Shown here piece after piece: positions 3,032 through 50,204 of a stretch of DNA of 59,351 nucleotides. Location: contig JBAZMP010000001.1 of assembly GCA_041649715.1 (NCBI GenBank), forward strand, positions 375,287-434,637. The letters are read 5' to 3'. The first letter of the stretch is position 1. Every line of letters starts with the position of its first letter. A program made the position numbers and the translations under genes. Source of the stretch: Patescibacteria group bacterium (GTDB lineage: Bacteria > Patescibacteriota > Patescibacteriia > JAXHNJ01). The notes under the pieces were generated by a model. It was not told where the DNA came from. It did not search any database and saw only the letters and a program-made list of their open reading frames with translations.

Positions 3032-4066
3032 ATGTCTAAAAAAGAAATTTTTGAAAAAAAGAATATTCTGATCACGGGCGGCGCCGGTTTTATCGGCAGC
3101 CACTTATGCGATCGGTTCATTAAGGGCAACCGCGTCATCTGTCTGGACAATTTTTTGACCAGCCAGGAGGAGAATATCAATCATCTGCTCGCCAATCCGG
3201 ATTTTGAATTTATCCGGCACGATCTTATCAAGCCGATAGACCTGGAAGCTTTGCCCGAGCTTAAAGACATGAAGATCAATGTCCAGGGGATTCAGGAAGT
3301 CTATCATTTGGCCTGCCCCGCTTCGCCCCGGGATTATAATAAATACCCCATTGAGACCTTGCTGGCCAGCGCTTATGCCACATATCATGCCCTGGAGATT
3401 GCCCGGAAATATCAGACCAAGTTCATGCTTTTTTCCTCCTCCACTATCTACGGAGAGGTTTTGGACCTGGAGAATATACACATCAACGAAAAATACTGGG
3501 GGTATGTCGATCCCGTCGGGGATAAAAGCTGCTATGACGAGGGCAAGCGTTTCGCGGAAAGCCTGACACGTAATTATCAGAAAAAATACCAGCTTGATGT
3601 TCGGATCGCCCGCGTCTGGAATACTTACGGTCCCCGGATGAGGTTGTATGACGGCCGGATGATCCCCGATCTGATCAGCCAGGCGATTTCAAACGAGCCG
3701 GTGAAGATTTACGGCGATATCGATAAGCTGACTTCCTTCTGTTACATAACCGATTTGATTGAAGGAATTGCCCGTTTGGCCAAGGGGAAAATTTTTGAGC
3801 CGGTTAACTTGGGAAATTCAGAGGGGGCTAAATTGAGAGAGGTCGCTTTAAAAATAATTGAACTGGCAGAATCTGGGTCAAAACTGGAAGTAGCTCCGGA
3901 AAAAGAAGGCGTCGGTTACGTGATTAAACAGAGCTTGCCGGATATCACTTTAGCCCGCGAAGCATTAGGCTGGTTTCCTTTGGTAAATCTCAATGACGGT
4001 CTAAAAAAAACCATTGAATACATGAAAGGCCTGAAAGCCGTCGATATACAGTCGCTAAAGATTTAA
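3032..4066 (+). CDS. UDP-glucuronate decarboxylase-like SDR (UDP-xylose synthase family)
   Basis: GGAGFIGSHLCD Rossmann motif, HLACPASP, CYDEGKRFAE (YxxxK) and ARVWNTYGPRM are all characteristic of the UXS/ArnA-decarboxylase type. Confidence 0.8.
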   Translation: MSKKEIFEKKNILITGGAGFIGSHLCDRFIKGNRVICLDNFLTSQEENINHLLANPDFEFIRHDLIKPIDLEALPELKDMKINVQGIQEVYHLACPASPRDYNKYPIETLLASAYATYHALEIARKYQTKFMLFSSSTIYGEVLDLENIHINEKYWGYVDPVGDKSCYDEGKRFAESLTRNYQKKYQLDVRIARVWNTYGPRMRLYDGRMIPDLISQAISNEPVKIYGDIDKLTSFCYITDLIEGIARLAKGKIFEPVNLGNSEGAKLREVALKIIELAESGSKLEVAPEKEGVGYVIKQSLPDITLAREALGWFPLVNLNDGLKKTIEYMKGLKAVDIQSLKI

Positions 4067-4099
4067 AATAATTATTAATAATTAAAAAAATAAAAAAAT

Positions 4100-5263
4100 A
4101 TGAGGAAGTATTTTTTTACCTCGGAATCCGTGACCGAAGGGCATCCGGACAAGATTTGCGATCAGATCGCCGACAGCATCCTGGACGCCATCTTGGCGAA
4201 AGATCCTTACGGCCGGGTCGCCTGTGAGACCTTGGTCGCCACCGGTTTGGTCATGGTGGCCGGTCAGATAACGACTAAGTGTTACGTGGATATCCCTAAA
4301 GTCGTCAGAAAAACGATCAAGGAAATCGGTTACGACAACCACGATTACGGTTTTCATTGGGAGGATTGCGGAGTTCTGGTTTCCATTGACGAGCAAAGCC
4401 CTGATATCGCCCAGGGCGTCAATAAAAAGAAACAGGGCGCCGGGGACCAGGGACTGATGTTCGGCTATGCCAGCAATGAGACTCCGGAATACATGCCCTT
4501 GCCGATCGTTTTGGCCCAAAAATTATGCCAACGTTTGGCCCTGTTAAGAAAGAACAAGACGCTTGAATACCTGGCGCCGGACGGGAAAAGCGAAGTCACG
4601 ATTGAATACGTGGACGGCCAGCCGAAAAGAGCGGAGACGATCGTGATCGCGTCCCAGCACCATAAGGATGTTTCTGAAAATCAACTGCGGCGGGATATTA
4701 TCAATAAAGTGATCAAGCCCGTTTGCGGCCTTTATCTTGACCGCCGAACCAAAATATTCGTTAATGCCACCGGTAAATTCGTCAAAGGCGGTCCGCCGGC
4801 CGATACCGGCGTGACCGGACGCAAGATTATCGTGGATACCTACGGCGGCGCCGGCCGGCACGGGGGAGGCTGTTTTTCCGGCAAAGACCCTTCCAAAGTG
4901 GACCGCAGCGCTTCCTATATGGCCCGCTATGTCGCCAAAAACGTGGTCGCCGCCGGTTTGGCCGATAAATGCGAGGTACAGCTGGCTTATGTCATCGGTT
5001 ATTACCAGCCGATCAGCGTTTATGTGGATACTTTCGGCACGGGAAAGATACCCGAAACCAAGATAGAAAAATTGATCCGTAAAAACTTTGACCTTTCTCC
5101 CGCCGGTATTATAAAGAAACTGAATTTAAGGCGCCCGATTTACCATAAAACCGCGGCTTACGGCCATTTCGGCCGGTCGGACAAGGATTTTACCTGGGAG
5201 AAAACGGATATGATAAATATACTGAAAAAAGAGGCAGGGATATTAAGATCATCGGTTAAATAA
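4100..5263 (+). CDS. metK: S-adenosylmethionine synthetase
   Basis: [51 protein letters not shown] and [16 protein letters not shown] are canonical MetK motifs. Confidence 0.97.
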
Positions 5264-5264
5264 T

Positions 5265-6572
5265 ATGAAAAAAAACAGCAAGAAATCTGACAAATTATTG
5301 AACAAAGGTACCGTGGCGGTGATCGGTCTGGGTTATGTCGGTCTTCCCTTGGCCTGTCTGGCTTCAGAGAAAGGATATCGGGTTATCGGTCTGGCGCGCG
5401 ATCCAAAGAAAATAGACCTGATCAATAAAAAAATCAGCCCGATCAAAGAAAACAAACTGGATGTTTGGCTGAAAAAAGTTGAGATTGAAGCCACGACCGA
5501 CCCTCGTCTTTTGAAAAAAGCCAAGGTCATTATTATTTGCGTTCCTACGCCGGTTGATCATTTATATAACCCCGATTTGACGCCGGTAATAGACGCTTCA
5601 ACCATGGCCGCAAAGTCACTCAGGCGGGGCCAGCTGATTATTCTAGAATCAACCGTGAACCCCGGGGTTTGCGAAGAAGTAGTGTTGCCTATTTTGGAAA
5701 AATCCGGTCTTAAGGCGGGCAAGGGATTCTTCCTCGCTCATTGTCCCGAGAGGATCAACCCAGGCGACAAGAAATGGTATGTCCGTAATATTCCGCGGGT
5801 CGTCGGCGGCTATTCGGAGAAATGCCTCAAGAAAGCCGTTGATTTTTACCGCTCAATTTTAGAAAGTGAGGTCAGGCCGATGAAATCCCTGAAGGAGGCA
5901 GAAGCAACGAAAATCATGGAAAATTCGTTCCGCGACGTAAATATCGCTTTTGTCAATGAGATCGCCCAGTCTTTTGACAAGCTCGGCATTGATGTTATGG
6001 ACGTAATCGAGGGGGCGAAGACCAAGCCCTTTTCTTTTTTGGCCCATTATCCTTCTTGCGGGATTGGCGGGCACTGTATCCCGGTGGATCCCTATTATTT
6101 GATTGAACGGGCAAAAAAAGAGGGCTTCGACCATAAATTTCTGAAATTGGCCCGCGAGATCAACAATGCCATGCCGAAGTTTACGGTTAACCAGCTGATG
6201 CTGGCCTTGAATTTTTTGGGCCATTCCGTAAAAGGAACAAAAATAGGCCTCTTGGGTGTGGCCTATAAGGCCAATGTGGCCGACATTCGTGAAAGCCCGT
6301 TTTTTGTGATCAAAAAACTTCTTAAACCTATGGAGCCGATCCTGGAGATTTATGATCCCTATCTTAAATCTTACTCCACAAAAGAAAGCTTGGATGAAAC
6401 GCTGAAAGGAAGCGAGGCGATTATTATCATCACCGATCACCGTGAATTTAAGGAAATGGATCTAAAAAAATTAAAGAAATTCGGCGTAAAAGTCGTTATT
6501 GACGGAAAAAATTGCCTGGATAAGGAAAAAATATTGAAAATGGGGATCATCTACAAGGGGATTGGGCGTTAA
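5265..6572 (+). CDS. nucleotide-sugar 6-dehydrogenase (WecC/WbpA/TviB-like N-acetylhexosamine type)
   Basis: VAVIGLGYVGLPLA Rossmann motif. The catalytic-Cys block GGHCIPVDPYYL has the GGHCI form typical of UDP-HexNAc dehydrogenases, rather than the GGSCFPKD form of Ugd. Confidence 0.85.
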   Translation: MKKNSKKSDKLLNKGTVAVIGLGYVGLPLACLASEKGYRVIGLARDPKKIDLINKKISPIKENKLDVWLKKVEIEATTDPRLLKKAKVIIICVPTPVDHLYNPDLTPVIDASTMAAKSLRRGQLIILESTVNPGVCEEVVLPILEKSGLKAGKGFFLAHCPERINPGDKKWYVRNIPRVVGGYSEKCLKKAVDFYRSILESEVRPMKSLKEAEATKIMENSFRDVNIAFVNEIAQSFDKLGIDVMDVIEGAKTKPFSFLAHYPSCGIGGHCIPVDPYYLIERAKKEGFDHKFLKLAREINNAMPKFTVNQLMLALNFLGHSVKGTKIGLLGVAYKANVADIRESPFFVIKKLLKPMEPILEIYDPYLKSYSTKESLDETLKGSEAIIIITDHREFKEMDLKKLKKFGVKVVIDGKNCLDKEKILKMGIIYKGIGR

Positions 6573-11984: not shown

Positions 11985-13073
11985 ATGCATCAAGAAGTAT
12001 TAAAATACATTTGCTGTCCTGTCTGCAAGAAGGGTCTTTCATTAACAATCTTTCGCCAGGATAATGAAAATAATATTCGTGAAGGTTATTTGTCTTGCCA
12101 ATGCGGCGCTCTATACCCAGTTATACGCGGGGTACCCAGATTGTTCTCTCGTGAATTAATGAGAGAACTCATTTACTTGCCGTATCGCTGGTTTTTGGCA
12201 GAATATGACGATCGGCTTCCCGGACCATTTACTAAAGAATGGCATGATTTTATCAATAATAAGGCAAAAGGGAGGTCCTTAAAACTTTCGACTGCCTCCA
12301 GTTTTGGCTATGAATGGAAAAGATTCAGCCGGCTTTTTGAAGTTTACCGCCTGAATTTTCTTAATTATATCCAACCTTTTAAGGAGTCGGATTTGAAAAA
12401 TAAGGTTATTTTAGATGCTGGTTGCGGGGTTGGCCGTCATACTTACTGGGCCGCCAAATTTGGCGCCAAGCAGGTAATCGGTCTGGACTTAAGCGATGCC
12501 GTGGAACCGGCCGATGAGAACTGTCGTCATTTAAAAAACGTAAATATTATACAAGCAGATATTTATAACCTTCCTTTTGGAGAAATATTCGACTTTATCT
12601 TTTCCATCGGGGTACTCCATCATTTGCCGGATCCCGAAGCTGGCTTTCGTTCTCTTACCAGATTTCTAAAGCCAGCCGGGATTATTCTAATCTGGGTCTA
12701 CGGGCGTCTCAATAATAATGCGGCGGTATATTTTTATGAACCAATAAGAAAAATCACCCGTCATATTAACAAGAAGGCTTTAGTTGTCATATGCTATCCT
12801 TTCGCCGGTGCAGTCCATGGTTTTAACCGATTGGCCGATTTAATGTCAAAATTACCGTTGACAAAAAAAGTGGCCAGTTTTTTGCCCTTCCAGTATTACC
12901 GCCTTTTTCCCTTTGAGGTTAAGCTAAATGACGCCTTTGATGTTTTGGCCACGCCCAAAAGCCGCTATTATAAAATTGAAAAAATCAGGAACTGGTTTAA
13001 AAATGCCGGATTTTCCGAATCTAAATTGTCGTATTTGCGCAAAAAGAGTATTATCGCTTATTCAAAAAAGTAA
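11985..13073 (+). CDS. class I SAM methyltransferase with N-terminal Trm112-like zinc ribbon
   Basis: CPVCKKGL...CQCGALYPVIRGVPRLF (Trm112-like). VILDAGCGVGRHT is motif I. DFIFSIGVLHHLPDP is present. Confidence 0.85.
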   Translation: MHQEVLKYICCPVCKKGLSLTIFRQDNENNIREGYLSCQCGALYPVIRGVPRLFSRELMRELIYLPYRWFLAEYDDRLPGPFTKEWHDFINNKAKGRSLKLSTASSFGYEWKRFSRLFEVYRLNFLNYIQPFKESDLKNKVILDAGCGVGRHTYWAAKFGAKQVIGLDLSDAVEPADENCRHLKNVNIIQADIYNLPFGEIFDFIFSIGVLHHLPDPEAGFRSLTRFLKPAGIILIWVYGRLNNNAAVYFYEPIRKITRHINKKALVVICYPFAGAVHGFNRLADLMSKLPLTKKVASFLPFQYYRLFPFEVKLNDAFDVLATPKSRYYKIEKIRNWFKNAGFSESKLSYLRKKSIIAYSKK

Positions 13074-13074
13074 A

Positions 13075-14037
13075 ATGCGATTATCAAACCAAAAGAAAAA
13101 AATCAGTTTACTGGTTCCCCCAAGGACAGGCGGACCCCTAGGATGGGCTAAAAATTTAGTTTATCAAATAAATAAAGAGCAGACTTTTGAAGCCGAGATA
13201 GTTACTTCGCCGCTCAGAATCTTTTCTTCTCATTTTAAGTCGAAGGGAGACATAATTCACGCGGCGGTTCCTCTGGCCTGTAATTTTTCCAAGAAGCCGT
13301 ATATTTTAACCGTTAAAGGTGATTTTACCATTGAGAAAACTATATGGCGGTCTCTTTATTTTAGGGCGATAAAAAAAGCCGATATTATCACTGTTCCCAG
13401 CCAGTATTTAAAAGACCGAATTCCATGTCTTGAAAAAGCGGTTGTTATTCCCAATGCCGTAAACCTTGATAAATTCAAACAAGTCAATTTGAATAATAAT
13501 AAAGATTTCAATCTGCTGATAGTGTCAAATTTTTGTTTTGAAGACAAGACAAGGGGAGTTATAAATTTACTGAAAATTTTTGAACATTTGAATAAAGGGA
13601 TGACACAGCCAGGATTTAGAGTCACGGTACTAGGCGACGGGCCGTATAAAAATATTGCGGAAAAAAATGCGGCTGGCTTGAGCAATTCTGTTGATTTTGT
13701 CGGCTGGGCTGATCCGGTAGAATATTTTGATAAAGCCGATATATTTACCTACTATTCTTATCATGATAATATGCCTAATGCGGTCCTGGAAGCCATGGCT
13801 GCCGGTCTGCCCGTTATCTCAAATGTCGTTGGCGCCTTGCCGGAAATGATTGAGACTGGCGTAAGCGGGATTTTAGTGCAGAGTGACGAGGAATACAAAG
13901 ATCAGCTCAAGCAATTACTAATAAATTATGATTTAAGGAAAAGAGTCGGCCAAGGGGCCCGCGAGAAAATTGAAACCAAATTTAACTGGGAAAAAGTTGT
14001 TAAGGAATATATCGCTATATACCAAAAACTAATTTAA
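13075..14037 (+). CDS. GT4 glycosyltransferase
   Basis: Start moved to the ATG one nt after the upstream TAA (MRLSNQKKKISLLVPP). C-terminal NMPNAVLEAMAAGLPVISNVVGALPE...GVSGIL is the GT4 signature. Confidence 0.85.
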   Translation: MRLSNQKKKISLLVPPRTGGPLGWAKNLVYQINKEQTFEAEIVTSPLRIFSSHFKSKGDIIHAAVPLACNFSKKPYILTVKGDFTIEKTIWRSLYFRAIKKADIITVPSQYLKDRIPCLEKAVVIPNAVNLDKFKQVNLNNNKDFNLLIVSNFCFEDKTRGVINLLKIFEHLNKGMTQPGFRVTVLGDGPYKNIAEKNAAGLSNSVDFVGWADPVEYFDKADIFTYYSYHDNMPNAVLEAMAAGLPVISNVVGALPEMIETGVSGILVQSDEEYKDQLKQLLINYDLRKRVGQGAREKIETKFNWEKVVKEYIAIYQKLI

Positions 14038-14043
14038 TAAAAA

Positions 14044-15570
14044 ATGCTTGAAATATTAGAAAGAATCAGCCATCATAAAAAAGATATTCTTGTTATCGTT
14101 GTACTATCATTAACCGTATTATTGGCAATTCTTATTATTAATTATAAATTTACGGATTATCCCTTTGGTCCTGATGAATACGCATATCAGGGTGCATCCA
14201 GGAGGATGATAGAATTTGGCAACAAAGATTTGACGATATTTTATCCGAATGCCGCCTTGATTCTTCCATATTTTGTCGGAGTGCTAAGTGATATTGTCAA
14301 TCTCGATATTATGATTTTATATCGAATAATTCATATTATCGTGATTATCATTTCGATTGTTTCTTTTTATTTTCTTGGCAATTACATTAGTAAAAAAAAT
14401 GGCATACTGCTAGCCGTACTTGTTTCTTTGTTTCATACAACGACATTTTGGTTAGGTTTGGGCTATATGGTTCCCTCGACTTTGATTTTTGTTATTCTTC
14501 CATTTTTTTTACTCTCGCTTTTGAGATCAAATATTAAATTATTGATATTGTCGATATTATTTAGCGGATTTATTTATTGGTGGTCATTATTCCCCCTTGC
14601 CATTATGACTTTTATTTATTTTCTTTTGTTAAAAAAAAGATACTTTTTTCTGTTATTGGGAATAATTTTATCATATATACTGTATAAATATATACTTAAT
14701 TTTGACATTGCAGACCTATTGGGTGGCAGTGATTTGCCAGACTGGTATTTCTTAAGATTATGGAAAATATTGGCGTATTACGCCCCCTTTGTTATTTTAG
14801 CCTTCATTTTCGTAAAAAAAATGATCAATGAAAAGATAGTGAAGAAATATTTTTTGGTTTCTCTAGCTTTGGTGGGTACTAATTTATTAATTTTTATTTT
14901 TGTTTCGGAGCATACTCAAATGAGAACAGTAGTATTTCTTTTTGCGGGAATTTTTATGCTTTTTTCTCTTCTTTTTGAATCAATCAGCTTCAATAAAATG
15001 GCAGGAAAATTTTTGCCGTTAATTTTTATACTTTTTTTTATCCCCTTGGCAAGCGGCGTGGCCTTAAATTACAAAAATGATGTTTTTAGCAGCACGCCTT
15101 TATTGGCAGAAGAGTTGAATTTTTTTGAATATCATACAAAAGTAAGTTATCCAAAAGATTCATCAATCTTATCAGACAGTGCTACTATGCTAATCTCAAC
15201 ATTTAATCTGAACGACAGCACATATATTTTTTACGAACAGATAAAAAATAAAGAAGAAAATGGCTTAGGTTGGGCGGCCAATTTTTTTGCCCAGGAAGAG
15301 TTCGGGGAGAATGACTTTGTTTATTTAGACGGAATAATGGCGAAACTCAATGTCGATTCCTTGTATATCATTATTTCCCCAAGGACAAAATATTGGATTA
15401 ATGTCTGGGAAGACAGCGGAAAAAAATTTACCAGTCGCGCGGTTAGCTTTAATATTGAAAGAATCGCCCAGCCTTTTAGGGGCGAAGCAAAATTTGCCAG
15501 CAGTCCATTATTTAAACAGTATTATGTAAACCAATCGGTAAAAGTTTACCAATACTTCAGTTCACATTAG
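14044..15570 (+). CDS. large polytopic membrane protein with C-terminal soluble domain (candidate Wzy-like polymerase or GT-C enzyme)
   Basis: More than 10 hydrophobic helices over about 340 aa, then a hydrophilic tail. Markedly AT-rich. No motif recognised, so the assignment rests on context only. Confidence 0.6.
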   Translation: MLEILERISHHKKDILVIVVLSLTVLLAILIINYKFTDYPFGPDEYAYQGASRRMIEFGNKDLTIFYPNAALILPYFVGVLSDIVNLDIMILYRIIHIIVIIISIVSFYFLGNYISKKNGILLAVLVSLFHTTTFWLGLGYMVPSTLIFVILPFFLLSLLRSNIKLLILSILFSGFIYWWSLFPLAIMTFIYFLLLKKRYFFLLLGIILSYILYKYILNFDIADLLGGSDLPDWYFLRLWKILAYYAPFVILAFIFVKKMINEKIVKKYFLVSLALVGTNLLIFIFVSEHTQMRTVVFLFAGIFMLFSLLFESISFNKMAGKFLPLIFILFFIPLASGVALNYKNDVFSSTPLLAEELNFFEYHTKVSYPKDSSILSDSATMLISTFNLNDSTYIFYEQIKNKEENGLGWAANFFAQEEFGENDFVYLDGIMAKLNVDSLYIIISPRTKYWINVWEDSGKKFTSRAVSFNIERIAQPFRGEAKFASSPLFKQYYVNQSVKVYQYFSSH

Positions 15571-16702
15571 CGTAGTCTATCGCCTTAACAAACATTTCTG
15601 CTTGTTTTTGCGGACAGAATTCGTATTTGGCAATTTTTTGGCTTTCTTCACCCATTATTTTGGCCAATTTATCGTCAGAAACAATTTTTAATATAGCCCG
15701 GTACAATTCTTCGGGATCACCTTCTTTAACTTGAATTCCGTTTTTCATGTTTTTGATTAAGTCATATGAGCCGCCGACTGAAGTGGTGGATATAACGGGT
15801 TTGCCCATGGACATAGCTTCATTTAAAGTCATTCCCCATGATTCAACATTAATATTTGATTTTTTTACCTGCTGTCCTGGTAAGACAAATAAGTAACAGA
15901 GTTTGTAATAATAGTGAGTATCTTCAAACGGTATTTTATTCAAAAAATATACTTGGTTAACAGCCAGTTTTTTGGCTAGTTGATGACAATAATTCTCAAA
16001 GGGGCCATTTCCAACTATAAGCAGTTTAACATCATTTCTTTCTTCTAGTTTAGAAAAGGCGGTTATCAGGGCATCTAGATTTTTTATTCTTAAAATTCGT
16101 CCGAGATAAAGAATTATTCTTTTATTTTCTGGATTTGTTTCACTCCTTATTTTTTCAAATTTTTCCCAGGAGATCTCCCTATTGCTCAAATCTTGGGAAA
16201 TATTGGGGGCCACAAATATCTTATCTGGTTTAGCCCCCGCTTTCAGGTAAAATTCTTTAGACTTGCTGCCGGCGGCCACGCAGGCCCCGGATTTTTTCGC
16301 GATATATTTGATAAATGGATAGAGAATCTTACCCCAAAAAGTGTCCGGCATTTTCCATATTTCGCTAAAAACAAGATATTTCTTCTTCAGAACTCGGCTC
16401 ATGATAAAGGATATTTGTGCGGGGAAAGAAGCAATGTCAGAAGCGAGGATAGTCTGGTACTGCTTTCGCCTTTTTATTAATTCTGGTATTAAACCCGGAT
16501 TAATAGCACCCTTATAGCCAAGGAAGGGTGTTTTTTTAAGGATTTTGTAATCCCATCTCGCATACTCTCTAGGCGGATTTTTTTCTTTTTGGCCATGAGT
16601 AAATAAAAAAATTGTCCTAAATTTTTCGTCCAGGGTATTGAATAAGGGCAGGCGGTAGGGCCTTGCCTTGGCGTGAATTATTAGTAAACCAGGTTTTTCC
16701 AT
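15557..16702 (-). CDS. GT4 glycosyltransferase
   Basis: ESWGMTLNEAMSMGKPVISTTSVGGSYDLI...NGIQV is the GT4 C-terminal signature. The 3' end overlaps the convergent 14044..15570 gene by 14 nt. Confidence 0.85.
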   Translation of the reverse strand: MEKPGLLIIHAKARPYRLPLFNTLDEKFRTIFLFTHGQKEKNPPREYARWDYKILKKTPFLGYKGAINPGLIPELIKRRKQYQTILASDIASFPAQISFIMSRVLKKKYLVFSEIWKMPDTFWGKILYPFIKYIAKKSGACVAAGSKSKEFYLKAGAKPDKIFVAPNISQDLSNREISWEKFEKIRSETNPENKRIILYLGRILRIKNLDALITAFSKLEERNDVKLLIVGNGPFENYCHQLAKKLAVNQVYFLNKIPFEDTHYYYKLCYLFVLPGQQVKKSNINVESWGMTLNEAMSMGKPVISTTSVGGSYDLIKNMKNGIQVKEGDPEELYRAILKIVSDDKLAKIMGEESQKIAKYEFCPQKQAEMFVKAIDYANVN

Positions 16703-18037
16703 TTATTTAGAAACTATTTTATTAAATAGTTCAGCGAGCTTTTTTGTCAGGGCGTCTCTCCGATGACTGGATATAATATCGTCGGAAGGCCGCGCCATCA
16801 ATTCATTTTTCTGCCATTTCTCAACGATAACTCGTAGAACTGCCCGCATTTTTTCAAAATCAAGACGAGGACAAGTAAAGCCGATATTATTATTTTCAAT
16901 AAAATCCTTGACAATACCCTGGTTAACTAAAGCTAAAATTGGTCTTTTTGAGGCCATATATTCGAACATTTTACCGGGATATGAGTTCTGGGCGAAGCGG
17001 TCGTCCAGGATCAAAAGGAGTAGATCGGAGTTGAAATACTCTTTAAGGCTTTGTTTATGGGAAATAAAGCCGGAGTAGGGTATCGCATGGGGCTCATTCT
17101 CTCTTCTTAAAAGATTCGGGTCGGCAGAGCTGAAGACATTTACCCTGATTTTATCCTTTAATTCGGGTTTTTCAGCCCCAATATTCTCGATAGCTTGGAG
17201 CAAAACTTGAAAAGATTCAATGTGGGGGCGGTCTATTCCTCCGAAAAATGTTATATTGATATAATCTTTTTTTATATATTTTTGTTCCTGAAAATCTTCC
17301 AGATCGAAACCATTTCGTATAACAGTAAATTTTTTTTCATCTGAATAATTTGTGCGTCTGGACAGGTATTCTTTGCATGGCTCCGTCGCGCAGATAATTG
17401 CGTCAGCCTTGTTCACAACTTCTTTTTCCAATCTTAATTCCACTTGTTTTTCCCAAGGCCCCCATTTTTTCCCCGGAGTATCGGTCCAGACATCTCGAAA
17501 GTCTGTAACCCAGGGAAGACGGGCGTATTTTTTTAGCTTTTGGCCGATTTTATGGAGACTGTGCGGCGGGCAGGTGGTATAAATCAAATCTATCTGGTGT
17601 TCTTCTATTAATTTTTTGGCATATTTAACGGCTTGCCCGCGCCAAAAGATCTGCTGATCGGGTATAAAAAAAAGACGGGCCATTAAATATTCAAAAGTGG
17701 ATAACCGGCTAATTAGCCATTTGGTGAATGATTTTTTATTTTGAGGTGAGGGATCTATTTCTTTTTTTTGGCTCGCTTTCGATTTTTTGATAATAAACTT
17801 TTGGACTAGATAAGAACGGAATTTGGTGAAAGGAGAGGGGGGGGTGCGGATGATTATGGCTTCTGGGGGTATTTCTTTCGTAAGTTCATTGTCTTGAATA
17901 GATAGTTTTTGATCGACCGTAAGAACGACCGGCTGCCAGCCGAATTTCGGCAGGTATTTCACGAATTTTGCCGTCCTAATAACCGCCCCACCGCCAACCG
18001 GCGGAAAGAAATAAGTTATAATCAGAACTTTTCGCAT
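16703..18037 (-). CDS. GT4-like glycosyltransferase (GT-B)
   Basis: N-terminus MRKVLIITYFFPPVGGGAVIRTAKFVKYLPKFGW is typical of Glyco_trans_4-like N-domains. C-terminal block YPGKMFEYMASKRPILAL. Confidence 0.75.
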   Translation of the reverse strand: MRKVLIITYFFPPVGGGAVIRTAKFVKYLPKFGWQPVVLTVDQKLSIQDNELTKEIPPEAIIIRTPPSPFTKFRSYLVQKFIIKKSKASQKKEIDPSPQNKKSFTKWLISRLSTFEYLMARLFFIPDQQIFWRGQAVKYAKKLIEEHQIDLIYTTCPPHSLHKIGQKLKKYARLPWVTDFRDVWTDTPGKKWGPWEKQVELRLEKEVVNKADAIICATEPCKEYLSRRTNYSDEKKFTVIRNGFDLEDFQEQKYIKKDYINITFFGGIDRPHIESFQVLLQAIENIGAEKPELKDKIRVNVFSSADPNLLRRENEPHAIPYSGFISHKQSLKEYFNSDLLLLILDDRFAQNSYPGKMFEYMASKRPILALVNQGIVKDFIENNNIGFTCPRLDFEKMRAVLRVIVEKWQKNELMARPSDDIISSHRRDALTKKLAELFNKIVSK

Positions 18038-18043
18038 ATTTTG

Positions 18044-20194
18044 TCAGAGGGTAATTTCTATATTTTTCCTGATGCTTTCAAGAATTAGAAAGCTGATCCG
18101 CGTGGTATTGACCATATCCTCTAGGGGGATGGGCATTTCTTTTCCGTTTTTTATCGCTTCAGCGACCAGGCGCATTTCTTCTTTATGGCCTTTGTCTGGT
18201 GTTTTTGCCTTTATTTCATTTTTGCCGAAACCGTAAAATTTAAGTGATTCGTAATTATCCATGACTATGGATTTTTCGTTAATATGTACCTCCATTTTTT
18301 CCTTGGGTAAATCAGAAGCCGCTTCGGTGGTGTATATAAGAGTGCTGATGGCGCCGGAGGGATAGGTGAAAACGCAAATAACGTTGTCGTAGTCGATGAT
18401 ATTTTTGGAATGGGCGGATAATGATCGGGCGTAAACGGATTTTGGCTGTTCGCCGGCAAAATAGGAGAGAAGGTCGATAAAGTGACACCCCTCGCCGATT
18501 ATTCGGCCGCCGCCTTCTTCTGAATCGTTAACCCAGGCGTCTGCCGGCGCTTTGCCGCCGTTTACCCGGTAGGTAATAATCGGGGGAGTGCTTATATTCT
18601 CAATCTCTTTTTTAACTATCTGATGAAACGGAGCAAAGCGTCGGTTAAAACCTACCATCAGACGAGTTTTTGTCTTTTTGACAATTTCAACAATCTCGTT
18701 CAGTTCTTCCTGATTCATCGCTAGGGGTTTTTCCACAAATACGTTTTTGCCCGCCTTGGCGGCCTCAATCGTCATTGGGGCATGAGTATTATGGCGGGTA
18801 GTTATTACGACCAAATCAATATTCGGGTCGTTCAGCGCCTCCTTATAATCAGTCGTCGCTTTCTTTGCTTGCCACTTTTCGGCCGCCGATTTAATCTTGT
18901 CACCCGATAATCCGACTATCGTGTTTATATCAAAATCGCCCAGGGCAGTCATATTCGGCAGGTGCACGGCTTGGGCAAACCCACCGGCGCCAATTACCGC
19001 AACTTTTATTCTATCGCCCGGTTTTTCTGCCCGTGAGAAGGTGATGCTCCTGTCGATCTTATCTGGAATTTGTTCTGTGTATTTTAAGATAACCCCCAAT
19101 GGGCGTGAGCCGGCGGACATTAAATGTTCATATCCCTGAGGCGCTTCTTTTACGGGTAGTTTCTCGGAAATGATTTTAGATAGATTGATTTTTTTCTGGG
19201 CGATAAGATTGAGATAAGCTTCCATATTTCTTTTTTCCGTCCAGCGGACAAAACCAATCGGGTAATCCTGGCCTTTTTCTTCATAGTTCTTGTCATATCG
19301 GCCGGGTCCATAGGAAGTGGAAATAAAAAAGTGTCCTTCTTTTTCATAAAACGGTGAGCGGGGGAACGACATGCCGACGACGCCAACTAAAACGACTTTG
19401 CCCCTCTTTCTGATCATTTCCATCGCCTGCTTAAGAGGCTCGTTGCTTTGGGTAGCGGCGCAGATAATGACCGAATCGGCGCCCTGGGTATTTGTTATTT
19501 CTTCGATTACCTTCAAAGGATCTTCTTTACCAAGAATAACGCCTCGGTTTAACCCCATGGCCAGGGCTTTTTTTACTCTTTCTGCATCTGGGTCAAGGCC
19601 AATCGTAAAACAGCCAGCGGCTTTAAGAATCTGGACGGTGATCTGACCGATTAAACCCAGGCCGGAAACAACCACAAATTCACCGATTTGATTGTCGGCT
19701 CTTCTGACTCCTTGAAGAGCGATACTGCCGACTGTCGTGGTGGCGGCCTGTTCAAAATCAACTCCCTCTGGAACGCGGGCGACTAAGTTTTTAGGAACCA
19801 CGACATAATCGGCGTGATTGGCAATGTGGGCGCCGGCGCAAGCGACTTTATCGCCAACGGAGATCTCGGTTACCCCCTGACCGACTTCGACCACCACTCC
19901 GGCGGAGCTGTAACCCATCGGCGAAAGTTCTTTTGATTTTAACAATTTCTGAACATCCTGGATGGTCTTTATAACTCCGTTCTTTTTCATCATTGCCAGA
20001 ACTTTTTTAACCAAATCCGGATTCTTTGCCGCGGTTTTTGCCATTGACTGGGAAGCGGTTTTAACGCCGCTTGTTTCCGTGCCGCTGCTTATCAAAGAAG
20101 CGTAATTCTTAACTAATACTTTGCCTGGTTCACAGACCGGCGGGGGAACATCTAAAACTACGACCCCCCCTTTTTTGTTAAAAACTTGAAGCAT
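18044..20194 (-). CDS. two-domain oxidoreductase: MDR alcohol-dehydrogenase-like N-half fused to Gfo/Idh/MocA C-half
   Basis: The N-half has an MDR Rossmann motif (VVVSGLGLIGQITVQILKAAG). The C-half has IKVAVIGAGGFAQAVHLPN and FVEKPLAMNQEE, which are the Gfo/Idh/MocA hallmarks. Confidence 0.85.
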   Translation of the reverse strand: MLQVFNKKGGVVVLDVPPPVCEPGKVLVKNYASLISSGTETSGVKTASQSMAKTAAKNPDLVKKVLAMMKKNGVIKTIQDVQKLLKSKELSPMGYSSAGVVVEVGQGVTEISVGDKVACAGAHIANHADYVVVPKNLVARVPEGVDFEQAATTTVGSIALQGVRRADNQIGEFVVVSGLGLIGQITVQILKAAGCFTIGLDPDAERVKKALAMGLNRGVILGKEDPLKVIEEITNTQGADSVIICAATQSNEPLKQAMEMIRKRGKVVLVGVVGMSFPRSPFYEKEGHFFISTSYGPGRYDKNYEEKGQDYPIGFVRWTEKRNMEAYLNLIAQKKINLSKIISEKLPVKEAPQGYEHLMSAGSRPLGVILKYTEQIPDKIDRSITFSRAEKPGDRIKVAVIGAGGFAQAVHLPNMTALGDFDINTIVGLSGDKIKSAAEKWQAKKATTDYKEALNDPNIDLVVITTRHNTHAPMTIEAAKAGKNVFVEKPLAMNQEELNEIVEIVKKTKTRLMVGFNRRFAPFHQIVKKEIENISTPPIITYRVNGGKAPADAWVNDSEEGGGRIIGEGCHFIDLLSYFAGEQPKSVYARSLSAHSKNIIDYDNVICVFTYPSGAISTLIYTTEAASDLPKEKMEVHINEKSIVMDNYESLKFYGFGKNEIKAKTPDKGHKEEMRLVAEAIKNGKEMPIPLEDMVNTTRISFLILESIRKNIEITL

Positions 20195-43910: not shown

Positions 43911-45095
43911 ATGTTTGATTTTAAGGATCAAATACAAAAAGAGATTGACGAGATCAAAGCCAATAACCTTTACAAGCAGGAAAGGTTTATCGAAGGGCCT
44001 CAAGGGGCGGAGATTACCGTCAACGGCAAAAAGGTCTTGAATTTCTGCGCCAACAATTACCTGGGCTTGGCCAATAATCCCAAAGTGGTCAAAGAAGCGG
44101 AAAAAATGGTGAAAAAATGGGGCTATGGCTTGTCTTCGGTCCGCTTTATCTGTGGTACCCAGACAATTCACAAAGAGCTGGAAAAGAAAATCTCCGAGTT
44201 TTTAGGCACCGAAGACACTATTATTTATTCTTCTTGCTTTGACGCTAACGGTGGTTTGTTTGAGACAATATTAAAAGATACTGACGCGGTAATTTCCGAT
44301 GAATTAAACCACGCCAGTATCATAGACGGCGTCAGGCTTTGCAAAGCCCAGCGTTTTGTTTTTAAGCATATGGAGTATTCGGATTTGGAAGCCAAGCTCA
44401 AAGAAGCCCAGAGTTTACGCCGCCGTTTAGTGGTGACGGATGGCGTGTTCAGCATGGACGGTGATATCGCGGATTTAAAATCCATGGCGGACTTATGTGA
44501 CAAATACAAAGCCTTGTTGGTAGTTGATGATTCGCACGCCACGGGCTTTACCGGCGAGAACGGCAAGGGGACTCATGAACATAATGGCGTAATGGGCAGA
44601 GTAGACATTATTACTTCCACTTTAGGCAAAGCTTTGGGGGGAGCAACCGGGGGGTTCACGTCCGGCCGGAAAGAAATCATTGATTATCTGCGCCAGCGCT
44701 CCAGGCCTTATTTATTCTCCAATTCTTTGGCGCCGATGATCACCGCTACGTCTATCGCCATTATTGATATGCTGGGGGAGAGCAAAGGGGCCCTGACGAC
44801 CTTAAGGGAGAATACCAAGTATTTCCGCGAGAAGATGACCGACGCCGGTTTTGACATAAGAAAAGGCACCCATCCCATTTGTCCGGTGATGCTTTATGAT
44901 GCCGGCTTAGCTCAAAATATGGCCAAGGAGCTTCTTGGCGAGGGGATTTACGTCATTGGTTTCTTTTACCCGGTTGTGCCTCAAGGCAAGGCGAGAATCC
45001 GCGTTCAGATTTCCGCGGCCCACACCAAAGCGCATTTGGATAAAGCCATTGCCGCGTTTATCAAAGTGGGAAAGAAGTTGGGAGCCATCAAGTAA
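43911..45095 (+). CDS. kbl: glycine C-acetyltransferase (2-amino-3-ketobutyrate CoA ligase)
   Basis: Near-collinear with E. coli Kbl as I recall it: NFCANNYLGLAN, SVRFICGTQ..HKELE, YSSCFDANGGLFE, LNHASIIDGVRLCKA, DGVFSMDG, DDSHA.GF, GTLGKALGGA.GG and SRPYLFSNSLAP. Confidence 0.95.
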   Translation: MFDFKDQIQKEIDEIKANNLYKQERFIEGPQGAEITVNGKKVLNFCANNYLGLANNPKVVKEAEKMVKKWGYGLSSVRFICGTQTIHKELEKKISEFLGTEDTIIYSSCFDANGGLFETILKDTDAVISDELNHASIIDGVRLCKAQRFVFKHMEYSDLEAKLKEAQSLRRRLVVTDGVFSMDGDIADLKSMADLCDKYKALLVVDDSHATGFTGENGKGTHEHNGVMGRVDIITSTLGKALGGATGGFTSGRKEIIDYLRQRSRPYLFSNSLAPMITATSIAIIDMLGESKGALTTLRENTKYFREKMTDAGFDIRKGTHPICPVMLYDAGLAQNMAKELLGEGIYVIGFFYPVVPQGKARIRVQISAAHTKAHLDKAIAAFIKVGKKLGAIK

Positions 45096-47374: not shown

Positions 47375-47692
47375 AAAAAGGGAGAGTTTAAGTCCTCTCC
47401 CTTGGCGCAGAAGCTCTCTAGACCGCGTAAAGCTCGGGAATAGTTGAATTCCTCCCACTACCTGGGACTTTTTGAATTCTTCCCTCGCGATAACGGCGGG
47501 GTCAGCGGACCCGGGCGGTATTTCAAGTGGTCTGTGCGACTCCTTCCTGGCTGGCGCCAGAATTTCATAGTCTCCCGCCTATCCTACACTGGGCCTGCCT
47601 CTAGGCAGAGTTAATCAGCCGAGGGGCTCGAACCCTCCCACTGCCGTTTTTTGTTTCGGCAGATATGTCCCACCGAGGCTGTTTCTGCGCGT
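47375..47692 (-). ncRNA. unclassified structured RNA, copy 1 (~318 nt)
   Basis: It has its own promoter (47699..47726). The 5' GCGCAGAA (47683..47690) is complementary to TTCTGCGC (47405..47412). The terminator GGGAGAG-loop-CTCTCCC-T6 lies at 47374..47401. It is GC-rich relative to its surroundings and shares four conserved blocks with copy 2. Confidence 0.7.
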
Positions 47693-47698
47693 AAGGAT

Positions 47699-47726
47699 AT
47701 GTTAGCAGATGCCATATTTTTGTCAA
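47699..47726 (-). promoter_or_regulatory. promoter of ncRNA copy 1
   Basis: Minus strand reads TTGACA-16 nt-TAACAT. About 90 percent identical to the copy 2 promoter. Confidence 0.6.
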
Positions 47727-47752
47727 TATATAATACTTTTTGGCTGTAAGTA

Positions 47753-47780
47753 TTGACAAAAAAATAATATCTGTTAATAT
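47753..47780 (+). promoter_or_regulatory. divergent promoter of the 47832..48191 gene
   Basis: TTGACA-16 nt-TAATAT. The AAGGAGG RBS lies 6 nt before the ATG at 47832. Confidence 0.6.
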
Positions 47781-47831
47781 AAAGCATTCGCTGTTGGCTC
47801 GTATTTTTGTCTTGAACAATAAGGAGGGAAA

Positions 47832-48191
47832 ATGGAGCGCTCTTTAAAAAGAGTAAGATACGAGGGGATACGCCGTTCCGGAAGCGGCGAAGTAGATTAT
47901 GTCATTATCAACCGGCAATGCACTTTCAGCGCCCTCACCCGGGAAGCCACTTCAACGATAAACGTGGCGGAAAATGTTATCCGGGCGATAGCGGCCCAGG
48001 AAGGTATTTCGCCGAGTCGGCTGGAATTCTTCGACCTGCAGACTCATCGCGGCTACGATTCCAAGGAGCCAGGCGAACTCGAATACGATAGTTTGGTGGT
48101 CGATTACAGTAAAGATATCAGAGTAATCGATTGGATACCCTGTGTGTGTCCGGAAGAAATACAAGAACTTTTTGCCGAGCATATCGGTTAA
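47832..48191 (+). CDS. orphan 119-aa cytoplasmic protein
   Basis: Strong RBS, promoter and terminator. No family motif recognised. GC content is visibly higher than in the glycan genes. Confidence 0.7.
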   Translation: MERSLKRVRYEGIRRSGSGEVDYVIINRQCTFSALTREATSTINVAENVIRAIAAQEGISPSRLEFFDLQTHRGYDSKEPGELEYDSLVVDYSKDIRVIDWIPCVCPEEIQELFAEHIG

Positions 48192-48227
48192 TATCTTTCG
48201 AAGGCAGTAGTTCTTATCGATAAGACA

Positions 48228-48257
48228 GCGGTTCGCCCTTGGCGAACCGCTTTTTTT
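48228..48257 (+). terminator. intrinsic terminator of the 119-aa gene
   Basis: GCGGTTCGCC-CTT-GGCGAACCGC followed by TTTTTTT. Confidence 0.85.
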
Positions 48258-48261
48258 GTAG

Positions 48262-48301
48262 AAAAGAAAAACTGCTTGCTCACAAGATATTGAGCAAGCA
48301 G
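48262..48301 (-). terminator. intrinsic terminator of the minus-strand membrane-protein gene
   Basis: Minus strand reads CTGCTTGCTCA-8 nt-TGAGCAAGCAG followed by TTTTTCTTTTC. Confidence 0.8.
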
Positions 48302-48324
48302 TCGATTGTTTTGATTTAGCCGTG

Positions 48325-48657
48325 TCATCTATTTGGGTAATGGCTCAAATAGTAGCGCATTCTCCATTTTTTGTCGACGAGAGTAGCCAAATATAAGGCG
48401 GTAAGATAGCCATAGAGACAAATAGCAAGGATCGATAAGCCGAAAAATACTCCACATATAATGGTTATTCCGATAACTTCAAATTTGTATCGTTCACCAG
48501 TCAGTTCACATAACACGCCTATAATTAGGCTGATAATTAGGGCGACAACAGGCATGTGATTCGGCACATATTCGTTTATCCGTGGCAGGAAAAAGTTAAT
48601 GATCAGAAAAGTAGCCAATCCAAACGCTATCAGAAAAGCAATCCAACTCTTTTTCAC
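48325..48657 (-). CDS. orphan ~110-aa membrane protein (3-4 TM)
   Basis: AAAGGAGGTG RBS 4-7 nt before the GTG at 48657 (VKKSWIAFLIAFG...). The longer TTG-initiated ORF ending at 48696 lacks an RBS. Confidence 0.7.
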   Translation of the reverse strand: MKKSWIAFLIAFGLATFLIINFFLPRINEYVPNHMPVVALIISLIIGVLCELTGERYKFEVIGITIICGVFFGLSILAICLYGYLTALYLATLVDKKWRMRYYLSHYPNR

Positions 48658-48719
48658 GACACACCTCCTTTTATAATGGAATTCCTTAGATTTCAACTGA
48701 TTTAAATGTGCTATACTTT

Positions 48720-48747
48720 ATAGTACTCGAAGTTTAAATTTTGTCAA
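48720..48747 (-). promoter_or_regulatory. candidate promoter of the membrane-protein gene
   Basis: Minus strand reads TTGACA-16 nt-TACTAT, located between the copy 2 terminator and the RBS. Confidence 0.45.
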
Positions 48748-48765
48748 GAAGAAATTAAAAAAAGA

Positions 48766-49045
48766 AAAAAGGAAGAGTTTTTAGGTCCTCTCCCTTTACG
48801 TCGCAGAAGCTTTCCAGGCCGAGTAGAGTTTTTTACCAAAACCCCTTAAACTCAGACAGGTCGCAGATTAAAGGCGATATCGTACAATCTCCCCATTCTG
48901 ACGGCATAGGCGCCAGAATTCCCGCCACCGCGATATCGCGCTAACCTGCCCACCTTCCTTAGAAAGTTAATCAGCTCTATTGAGTCGTCAGACGGCCCGT
49001 CATTACCGTTGTTCATCTGACAGCCCTCAAGCCGTTTCTGCGCGT
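48766..49045 (-). ncRNA. unclassified structured RNA, copy 2 (~280 nt)
   Basis: It has its own promoter (49052..49079). The 5' GCGCAGAA (49036..49043) is complementary to TTCTGCG (48802..48808). The terminator is GGGAGAG-loop-CTCTTCC-T6 (48765..48796). It shares conserved blocks with copy 1. Confidence 0.7.
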
Positions 49046-49051
49046 ATGGAT

Positions 49052-49079
49052 ATATTAGCAGATGTATATTTTCTGTCAA
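49052..49079 (-). promoter_or_regulatory. promoter of ncRNA copy 2
   Basis: Minus strand reads TTGACA-16 nt-TAATAT. Confidence 0.65.
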
Positions 49080-49111
49080 ACAAAATAAACCGTTTTGTTT
49101 TGCGGTTATGA

Positions 49112-49221
49112 GTTTGGGCCAAGGGTATGGCGGCTAGTATGGTTATAAGGTTTGGGTTTGTCATTTTCTATAACTAAAACCATGCCCTCACCAGCCGCCA
49201 TAACCAGAACCAAGACCAAAC
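49112..49221. repeat. long imperfect palindrome / hairpin (~110 nt)
   Basis: TATGGCGGCT (49125..49134) pairs with AGCCGCCATA (49193..49202). The arms are flanked by further matches: ATGGTT/AACCAT and GTTTGG/CCAAAC. Confidence 0.55.
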
Positions 49222-49250
49222 CGATAAAAAAGGATTAGTTTTTAAAAATA

Positions 49251-50204
49251 TTATCTACCTAATTTCTTTTTCAACTCCCTTATCATCACTTCCGTCATCT
49301 TGGCTAAATCATATTCATGTTTCCAGCCCCAATCTTTTCTGGCCTGCGAATCGTCAATGGACTTGGGCCAGGAATCGGCAATGGCTTGCCGGAAATCAGG
49401 GGCGTAGGTGACTTTAAACTTTGGATAGTGTTTTTTTATTTCCTTAAAGACTTCTTGGGGCGTAAAGCTGACCGCCGCCAAATTATAGCTGGTCCGCACG
49501 CTTATTTTTTCTTTTGGCGCTTCCATCAGGTCAATGGTTGCTTTAACCGCGTCATCCATATACATCATCGGTAAAGCCGTGTCTTCCTTTAGAAAACACT
49601 CGTAATTATTGCCCTTTACCGCTTCGTAATAAATGGCGACCGCGTAATCCGTGGTCCCGCCGCCCGGTTCGGTTTTCCAGGAGATTACTCCCGGATACCT
49701 TAAGCTGCGGACATCCAAACCGAATTTATGAAAATAATATTGGCATAAAAGTTCGCCCGCCACTTTATTCAGGCCGTACATGGTGGTCGGCTCCAAGATC
49801 GTTCTCTGGGGGGTGCGGTCGCGGGGGGTCGTCGGGCCGAAAGCGGCGATGGAAGAAGGCCAAAAGACCTTTTCTACCTTATATTCCAAGGCCAGATCCA
49901 GGATATTTTTCAGGCCTTCAAGATTGACGCGCCAGGCAAGATTGGGATTTTTTTCGCCCGAAGCCGATAAAATGCCGGCCAGGTGGTAGATCGTGTTGAT
50001 ACGGTGTTTTTCCAGGACATTTCGGATCATTTCTTTGTCCGTGACGTCGACAATTTCGCCATGCCCGTATTTTAGGAGCTCGGGCGTCAGCTGTTTATCG
50101 AGGAAGCCCAGAACTATATTCTCTGGTCCGTGTTTTTTGTGCAAAACGGGCACGAGCTCCGAGCCGATTTGGCCGGCCGTGCCGGTAATCAATATTTTTT
50201 CCAT
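49251..50204 (-). CDS. tdh: L-threonine 3-dehydrogenase, SDR (UDP-glucose 4-epimerase-like) type
   Basis: ILITGTAGQIGSEL, PGGGTTDYAVAIYYEA, LPMMYMDDAV and FRQAIADSWPKSIDDSQARKDWGW match the short-chain LTDH family as I know it. Its pathway partner kbl lies 4 kb away. Confidence 0.8.
   Translation of the reverse strand: MEKILITGTAGQIGSELVPVLHKKHGPENIVLGFLDKQLTPELLKYGHGEIVDVTDKEMIRNVLEKHRINTIYHLAGILSASGEKNPNLAWRVNLEGLKNILDLALEYKVEKVFWPSSIAAFGPTTPRDRTPQRTILEPTTMYGLNKVAGELLCQYYFHKFGLDVRSLRYPGVISWKTEPGGGTTDYAVAIYYEAVKGNNYECFLKEDTALPMMYMDDAVKATIDLMEAPKEKISVRTSYNLAAVSFTPQEVFKEIKKHYPKFKVTYAPDFRQAIADSWPKSIDDSQARKDWGWKHEYDLAKMTEVMIRELKKKLGR

Follow-up and report, generated by a model that had tools for sequence, protein, structure and literature searches.

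Mimicry of ribosomal RNA (rRNA) is known from short messenger RNA (mRNA) sites that serve the self-repression of ribosomal proteins. The protein uL1 recognizes the same motif on rRNA and on its own mRNA (PMC2175363). Its binding site consists of a stem, an internal bulge with a G·A pair and an unpaired A, and a second stem (Fu et al. 2013, PMC3616713), and the known regulatory sites are 37-41 nt long, lie in front of rplK or rplA and are parts of mRNA leaders that repress translation in cis (PMC3616713). The bacterial 23S rRNA region bound by uL1, the L1 stalk (helices 76 to 78, H76-H78), also carries a pair of T-loops that holds the elbow of transfer RNA (tRNA) in the ribosome (PMC4810234), and interdigitated T-loop receptors are found as well in T-box Stem I and in RNase P (PMC4810234, PMC4919913). 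Here we describe two paralogous small RNA genes, copy 1 and copy 2, present in a 59,351-nt stretch of a Patescibacteria group bacterium genome (contig JBAZMP010000001.1, positions 375,287 to 434,637; the whole stretch is referred to as the window). The core arm of copy 1 is homologous to the 23S L1 stalk, and we give a probability of roughly 0.35 to the reading that both RNAs mimic rRNA as independent molecules and bind free uL1 in trans.

The two RNA genes are part of a module located between an M11-type peptidase gene and a gene that we take to be tdh, in the order RNA copy 1, 119-aa protein gene, 110-aa protein gene, RNA copy 2. The elements of the RNA genes are the following.

47694..47375, minus strand: RNA gene copy 1, about 320 nt, with its 3' end in the T-run of the terminator (promoter and terminator scan, fold, paralogue alignment).
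49047..48766, minus strand: RNA gene copy 2, about 282 nt (paralogue alignment, promoter scan, fold).
47726..47699, minus strand: promoter of copy 1, TTGACA-16-TAACAT, 10/12 consensus matches, TG-extended -10.
49079..49052, minus strand: promoter of copy 2, TTGACA-16-TAATAT, 10/12 consensus matches, TG-extended -10.
47403..47378, minus strand: intrinsic terminator of copy 1 (terminator scan and pair table).
48796..48769, minus strand: intrinsic terminator of copy 2, 9-bp stem and 10-nt loop (fold and pair table).

A previous examination of the letters, the sequence-only reading, had described two paralogous minus-strand non-coding genes with nearly identical promoters, each ending in a terminator placed directly after a helix that closes the molecule, and the promoter scan, the alignment and the folds agree with it on all these points. 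The promoter regions show 82% identity across 49 nt and, from promoter geometry only, transcription would start at about 47692 ± 2 in copy 1 and 49045 ± 2 in copy 2. Both terminators consist of a 9-bp GC-rich hairpin followed by a T-run; the terminator of copy 2 was seen by folding and in the pair table since the loop limit of the terminator scanner is below 10 nt. As also stated in the sequence-only reading, the RNAs are richer in G+C (0.57 in copy 1, 0.52 in copy 2) than the intergenic flanks (0.32-0.42), and they do not look like ordinary cis-leaders: a convergent gene meets the end of copy 1, and the gene after copy 2 has a promoter and ribosome-binding site (RBS) of its own. The open reading frames (ORFs) overlapping the RNA genes are not conserved from copy to copy, and the gene caller of the public assembly placed no gene over either of them. 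Both genes therefore have the attributes of stand-alone bacterial small RNA (sRNA) genes, i.e., their own sigma-70-type promoter, an intrinsic terminator and no conserved ORF. An assembly chimera is unlikely because the ENA and Logan assemblies agree at every base of the locus and NCBI and JGI/IMG also have records of the 119-aa protein. The pair of non-coding RNA genes is real and unusual.

Alignment of copy 1 and copy 2 showed 74% identity overall, very unevenly spread. Five identical runs of at least 7 nt were found, TACGCGCAGAAAC, GCTGATTAACT, AATTCTGGCGCC, AGCTTCTGCG and AAGGGAGAGGAC (10-13 nt each), while the ungapped remainder has 43% identity and there are 50 gap columns. Each conserved block occurs exactly twice in the window. 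Two matches to ACGCGCAGAAAC were reached by 2 of 100 shuffles; two matches to GCTGATTAACT at up to one mismatch were reached by 23 of 100, and are hence not unusual. No further copy of the RNA exists in about 20 kb of the same genome past the window. In the reading that we prefer, the RNAs are old paralogues of one lineage-restricted family.

The relationship of copy 1 to 23S rRNA was first seen in a distant blastn comparison with a phage collection, which returned 23S rRNA records at query nt 106-182. Against plasmids the 23S genes were matched always at the same nucleotides, the only other matches of copy 1 in the two collections being three chance-level ones to Gordonia phages (E 0.09), and copy 2 matched nothing in either. 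The positions of the arm in the two copies are as follows.

47595..47507, minus strand: L1-stalk module of copy 1 (copy 1 nt 100-188), including the top of H76, H77, H78 and both T-loop sequences.
48863..48949, minus strand: arm of copy 2 equivalent to the L1 module (alignment, pair table, sequence reading).

The Rfam model LSU_rRNA_bacteria (RF02541) matches 47595..47507 at model positions 2130-2211 with 35.1 bits and an E value of 2.7e-9, a score under the gathering score of 50 because only a fragment is matched. Every upper-case (highly conserved) consensus position of the RF02541 alignment is kept in copy 1, including H77, the GGGAG junction and H78, and the two T-loop sequences, GUGUAGGAUA and CUUGAAAUA, are identical to those of E. 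coli and of the large-subunit (LSU) consensus. An nhmmer comparison of copy 1 with 120 genuine 23S genes gave an E value of about 1e-8, and copy 1 nt 80-182 aligns to E. coli 23S positions ~2085-2179, i.e., the L1 stalk. The core arm of copy 1 is thus homologous to rRNA at the sequence level. The module differs from the ribosomal L1 stalk in that it has its own H78 stem sequence and a 7-nt insertion between H78 and the second T-loop, which is seen in 0 of the 120 real 23S genes, and in that it belongs to a 320-nt stand-alone gene with non-rRNA flanks. It lies outside any contiguous 23S gene: there is no other LSU match in the window, the flanks are dissimilar, and promoter and terminator belong to the RNA gene itself. 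In similarity to 23S flanks, the 5' and 3' parts of copy 1 did not exceed shuffled sequence, and cmscan gave no match for the 3' part. A wider likeness of copy 1 to H74/H75, H79 and the P-loop, suspected at first, was discarded, as shuffle tests against 11 real 23S segments gave z values of -1.6 to 2.2.

This significant, nearly canonical module was missed in the sequence-only reading, which had assigned the RNAs to no recognized family; the RNAs are not free of known motifs. Its statements on known families hold: Rfam scans of the window and of both copies gave no family covering either RNA as a whole, and neither copy matched RNase P RNA, tmRNA, SRP RNA, 6S RNA, Y RNA or the T-box (RF00230) at E values up to 10.

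Copy 2 shows no detectable rRNA similarity, neither in the RF02541 scan nor in shuffle comparison. Its arm retains GGCGGGA, AAUUCUGGCGCC, a 5-bp H77-like stem, the G·A pair with the unpaired A, an H78-like hairpin and a 9-bp H76-like stem, and has palindromic CGAUAUCG helices in place of the T-loop sequences. Position and shared blocks mark this arm as homologous to the L1 arm of copy 1, and the identity in both copies of AAUUCUGGCGCC, which forms the 5' strand and loop of H78, indicates that the L1-like arm predates the duplication. A resemblance of the 5' domain of copy 2 to the L11-binding region of 23S rRNA was not significant and was dropped. The uL1-site motif was judged by inspection against the published description. 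Copy 1 has GGCGG/CCGCC, G121·A176, A122 and then G123-C157; copy 2 has GGCGG/UCGCC, G127·A170, A128 and then A129-U153. By this reading both copies keep the H77 stem, the G·A pair with the unpaired A, and the H78 5' strand and loop, and match the described uL1 site.

Both RNAs fold better than their dinucleotide shuffles, with z-scores of -4.13 for copy 1 and -5.66 for copy 2, and no shuffle folds equally well. The helices, which were picked by hand and compared between two sequences only, are listed below.

47683..47690, minus strand: 5' strand of P1 in copy 1, GCGCAGAA, pairing with 47405..47412.
47405..47412, minus strand: 3' strand of P1 in copy 1, UUCUGCGC, partner of 47683..47690.
P1 closing helix, CGCAGAA/UUCUGCG: 7 pairs, all 7 identical in both copies and hence no evidence of covariation.
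P2, CAGCC/GGCUG in copy 1 and CGGCU/AGCUG in copy 2: 5 pairs, 1 compensatory, 1 one-sided.
47595..47608, minus strand: hairpin Pa of copy 1 (CUGCC-UAGA-GGCAG), counterpart of Pa in copy 2.
48953..48966, minus strand: hairpin Pa of copy 2 (CUUUC-UAAG-GAAGG), counterpart of Pa in copy 1.
Pa across copies: 5 pairs, 2 compensatory, 1 one-sided.
H76-like stem across copies: 7 pairs, 3 compensatory; 2 mismatches in copy 1.
H77-like stem across copies: 5 pairs, 4 identical, 1 changed from G-C to G·U.
H78-like hairpin, first five pairs, across copies: 4 identical, 1 one-sided.
47446..47479, minus strand: hairpin P3 of copy 1 (GAAUUC ... GAAUUC), 6 pairs.
P3 across copies, GAAUUC/GAAUUC and GAGUUU/AAACUC: 6 pairs, 2 compensatory.
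Terminator stem across copies: 9 pairs, 8 identical, 1 one-sided.

In copy 1 the P1 helix has one pair more than in copy 2 (G5-C290, read from the sequence), i.e., 8 bp against 7 bp. Double changes that keep the pairing number eight, distributed among P2, Pa, the H76-like stem and P3, and they are suggestive of a shared fold. The closing helix and the compensatory nature of Pa, both proposed in the sequence-only reading, were found as described, and its claim of hairpins at equivalent positions is correct for P2, Pa, the L1-like arm and P3 but not for the interior of P2, which forms two hairpins in copy 1 and one long irregular hairpin in copy 2. The covariation analysis that it had proposed could be carried out in part, on the two paralogues, as no homologues were found.

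The reading that we prefer is that the central arm of each RNA is derived from, or mimics, the 23S L1 stalk, and that both RNAs would bind free uL1 in trans, acting as a decoy, a buffer or a ribonucleoprotein (RNP) scaffold; copy 1 would additionally keep the T-loop pair that the ribosomal L1 stalk uses for the tRNA elbow. That the consensus of the copy 1 L1 core is intact while the copies drifted to 43% identity elsewhere points to purifying selection on this core, and the L1 module appears to have been kept by selection. The principle, rRNA mimicry, and the arrangement of stem, G·A pair with unpaired A, and second stem would be shared with the uL1 autoregulatory mRNA sites (PMC3616713). Those differ in being short leader parts acting in cis, whereas the RNAs described here are about 300 nt long, stand alone and are far from ribosomal protein operons (neither rplK nor rplA occurs in the window or in the ~20 kb examined past it), and the entire stalk head is preserved in copy 1. 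We rate rRNA mimicry in a stand-alone small RNA instead of an mRNA leader as the novel aspect of this candidate system. If the proposal is correct, rRNA mimicry extends to trans-acting small RNAs by means of a strongly promoted RNA of about 300 nt with a complete L1 stalk maintained by selection, and a bacterium with a reduced genome would use a dedicated RNA to buffer or recruit free uL1 or tRNA. The locus would in addition supply a compact L1-stalk construct of natural origin and, in its two paralogues, a case where uL1 site and tRNA-elbow site have become separated.

Several considerations weigh against uL1 binding as the function of these RNAs. Transcription, uL1 binding and an effect on the cell are predicted from nucleotides of a single genome, and the covariation comes from two sequences with no homologue outside that genome. 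Gene conversion from the cell's own 23S gene could keep the copy 1 core without selection. Copy 2 has no statistical match to rRNA, and H78 begins there with an A-U pair that departs from the conserved GGGAG. The size and location of the RNAs are unlike those of the known uL1-binding RNAs, which precede rplK or rplA. In addition, the model leaves three of the five blocks unexplained, namely both P1 strands and the GCUGAUUAACU junction, which are outside the L1 arm.

Homologues of the RNAs, a search for which had been proposed in the sequence-only reading, were not found in collections of genomes, metagenomes, viral contigs, phages or plasmids, and the family is known from one genome only. Among genome contigs a pattern of blocks 2 and 3 gave 19 matches and one of blocks 1 and 2 gave 6, both at chance level, and nhmmer found no significant match. 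Among metagenome contigs a three-block pattern had 0 matches and the pattern of blocks 2 and 3 had 43, none significant by nhmmer (best E 1.5). Four scans of viral contigs yielded chance matches only. No such RNA was present at 80 tdh-anchored loci (best 67% identity). The window's own genome was not among the matches in the genome and metagenome scans, and it may have been masked or not included there.

The best placed of the other explanations, although an unlikely one, concerns the protein genes of the module, which are as follows.

47832..48191, plus strand: 119-aa protein gene, divergent from copy 1, with its promoter at 47753..47780.
48325..48657, minus strand: 110-aa membrane protein gene, downstream of copy 2, with its own promoter at 48747..48720 (10/12) and AAAGGAGG as RBS.

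According to it, the 119-aa protein would bind the conserved blocks outside the L1 arm, and the RNAs and both proteins would act together in a cassette-specific RNP or accessory module, for example as a small island with a conflict or toxin-antitoxin-like function. The promoters of copy 1 and of the 119-aa gene form a 31-nt inverted repeat with 81% complementarity (window 47698-47781), and TTGACA...ATCTGYTAAYAT is common to the promoters of both RNAs and of the 119-aa gene and to no other promoter in about 80 kb, a spacer motif that hints at common regulation of the three. On the contigs that carry the nearest orthologues of the M11 peptidase next to the module (67%, 56% and 42% identity), the position is occupied by other genes, and the RNAs and the cassette are both absent; as a result the module looks like a lineage-specific insertion. 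The sequence-only reading had considered both proteins orphans. This is so for the 110-aa protein, for which no relatives were found (the locus of a strain variant, P0124, could not be found either), but not for the 119-aa protein, whose profile search reached 437 representative clusters at E values up to 1e-3, forming an unnamed family with some members fused to C-terminal TPR repeats. Next to one homologue of the 119-aa protein (43% identity), on another contig, a gene codes for a 167-aa protein (3-506) with a weak, sub-threshold match to Replic_Relax (E 0.0014), a hint that this homologue is plasmid-borne or otherwise mobile. On the other hand, neither small protein received a name from Pfam, NCBIfam, PADLOC or PHROGs, the model of the 119-aa protein (pLDDT 79.7) has no fold match in the PDB and is uninformative, and the window includes no integrase, transposase or target-site repeats. 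A co-occurrence of the RNAs with relatives of the 119-aa protein, one of the checks proposed in the sequence-only reading, was not seen on the two contigs with homologues, though these contigs are short.

Rather unlikely, and less probable than the RNP, is a role of copy 1 as an independent L1 stalk in which the interdigitated T-loops receive either a tRNA elbow in trans or the T-arm look-alike of the RNA itself in cis. Copy 1 would then represent a fourth class of RNA with this device after 23S rRNA, RNase P and T-box leaders, and copy 2 a diverged form that lost the contact. Besides the T-loop sequences, copy 1 includes a T-arm look-alike inside its P2 domain, 25 nt upstream of the L1 module.

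47637..47621, minus strand: T-arm look-alike GAGGG-UUCGAGC-CCCUC, present in copy 1 only.

This hairpin has equivalents of G53, U54, U55, C56, R57, A58 and C61, i.e., of all the T-arm invariants, and copy 2 has neither the T-arm nor the T-loops, as would fit the joint loss of interacting partners. Further cases of the motif have been anticipated (PMC4810234). T-arm-like hairpins (G-UUCRA-NN-C loop, 5-bp stem) number two in the window, both strands included, against 0.275 expected; the other one, at ~20719 on the plus strand within the region of a PGA_cap-like gene, is probably a chance occurrence. At 80% thresholds ARAGORN called a tRNA-like cloverleaf at copy 1 nt 11-83, which was not significant, as the call was also made in 13.6% of shuffles and at 22 places of the window, and at default settings it found no tRNA in the RNAs and no tmRNA. 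A feature not present in copy 2 cannot be the function of the family, and no tRNA or T-box family was matched in Rfam at E values up to 10. In comparison with the T-box Stem I and RNase P receptors (PMC4810234, PMC4919913), copy 1 has the L1-type version of the device, but the RNAs have no specifier or T-box sequence and no regulated gene of the T-box kind: copy 1 faces the 3' end of the convergent peptidase gene, and copy 2, where the device is missing, precedes an orphan membrane protein gene with its own promoter.

A closely related idea, to which we give slightly less weight, is that copy 1 constitutes a self-contained ribosomal E-site contact, with an L1 stalk that has working interdigitated T-loops and a tRNA-like domain with a canonical T-arm within one helix-closed transcript. 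Such an RNA would either fold back on its own T-arm domain or bind deacylated tRNA and uL1 in trans. If this were true, an L1-stalk RNA living free of the ribosome would be seen for the first time, copy 1 would be the fourth user, a non-ribosomal one, of the double T-loop receptor of the tRNA elbow, and the pair of copies would record the gain or loss of such a module. The combination of a stem closing the 5' and 3' ends with an internal tRNA-like T-arm module, in copy 1 only, is also reminiscent of the bacterial Y RNA YrlA (PMC4201824). The RNAs differ from it in being about three times larger, in lacking an Rfam match and a Ro60/Rsr gene in the window, and in that their tRNA likeness is not significant outside the T-arm.

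It is improbable that the RNAs are a decaying or selfish repeat, i.e., a duplicated intergenic segment with a captured fragment of rRNA, perhaps also of tRNA, and no function at the RNA level. Such an origin would be in line with the restriction to one genome, with intergenic rRNA fragments being not rare and with the disappearance of most of the rRNA likeness from copy 2. It does not account for strong promoters, terminators, a closing helix and five identical blocks kept amid the drift to 43%, nor for helices that seem to be maintained by compensatory changes and folds far better than those of shuffles.

We regard as very improbable that copy 2 is a protein- or ligand-sensing leader acting in cis as an attenuator of the 110-aa gene, with AAUUCUGGCGCC as the switch strand between H78 and GGYCURGAR, and copy 1 as a stranded duplicate. 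The proposal draws on an alternative partner of AAUUCUGGCGCC (block 3), namely GGYCURGAR located just 5' of the P1 3' strand. The resulting 9-bp long-range helix between blocks 3 and 4 is possible in both copies and is kept across them through three one-sided changes, so that block 3 has two conserved alternative partners, and the terminator starts 5 nt past P1. In constrained folds, however, forming the long-range helix requires 13-14 kcal/mol above the free minimum, compared with 4-7 kcal/mol for the local L1-type fold; this conserved but energetically disfavored helix may be an alternative conformation. The 110-aa gene has its own 10/12 promoter beyond the terminator, and downstream of copy 1 there is a second terminator and no gene. 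A riboswitch-style antiterminator was rejected because only 4-5 bp of pairing are possible.

That the RNAs are divergent forms of a known housekeeping RNA (RNase P, 6S, SRP, tmRNA or Y RNA) is scarcely credible, since their size, abundance signals and closing helix are compatible with it but no such family was matched at E values up to 10 in any Rfam scan, ARAGORN found no tmRNA, the window has no TROVE/Rsr gene, and the RNase P-like strings, ACGCGCAGAAACGGCUU, which is superficially like the P4/CR-V strand of RNase P (M1 RNA), and a GGAAAGUCC-like string found in copy 1 only, were rejected as present in one copy and lacking Rfam support.

The window is otherwise an ordinary chromosomal stretch of a Patescibacteria-like metagenome-assembled genome, the best relatives of its tdh gene being from Patescibacteria. 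It includes mostly genes for glycosyltransferases and nucleotide-sugar enzymes, together with metK, ahcY, an EPSP-synthase-family gene (murA/aroA-type), a gene for a ctpB-like protease, and the bL9 and pyrG genes. No reverse transcriptase, Cas protein, Ro60 or uL1 gene was found in it, and tRNAs, rRNAs and Rfam families that reach the gathering score are absent from the whole 59 kb. The products of kbl and tdh usually act together. The gene at 43911-45095 (Aminotran_1_2 family) is presumably kbl, coding for 2-amino-3-ketobutyrate CoA ligase, and that at 49251-50204 (NAD-epimerase family) was taken as tdh, coding for threonine dehydrogenase, in both cases from the family hit; the M11 peptidase gene and the RNA module lie in between. 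A long imperfect hairpin (49085-49250, minus strand), with 16-nt arms (49123-49138 and 49190-49205) that are 88% complementary, separates the stop codon of tdh from the promoter of copy 2. The 166-nt region folds with a z-score of -3.5 and could be the tdh terminator or another small structured element. Elsewhere in the window, a methyltransferase ORF (11985-13073) and a GT1 glycosyltransferase ORF (12928-14037) on the same strand overlap by 146 nt, and the latter probably starts at a later codon. Just past the window the same contig includes a gene for a TraG/VirD4-like coupling protein (3551-6130 in the coordinates of the neighboring stretch L287), a type IV pilus or T2SS-like cluster (12512-19975 in those of L289) and a bL27 gene.

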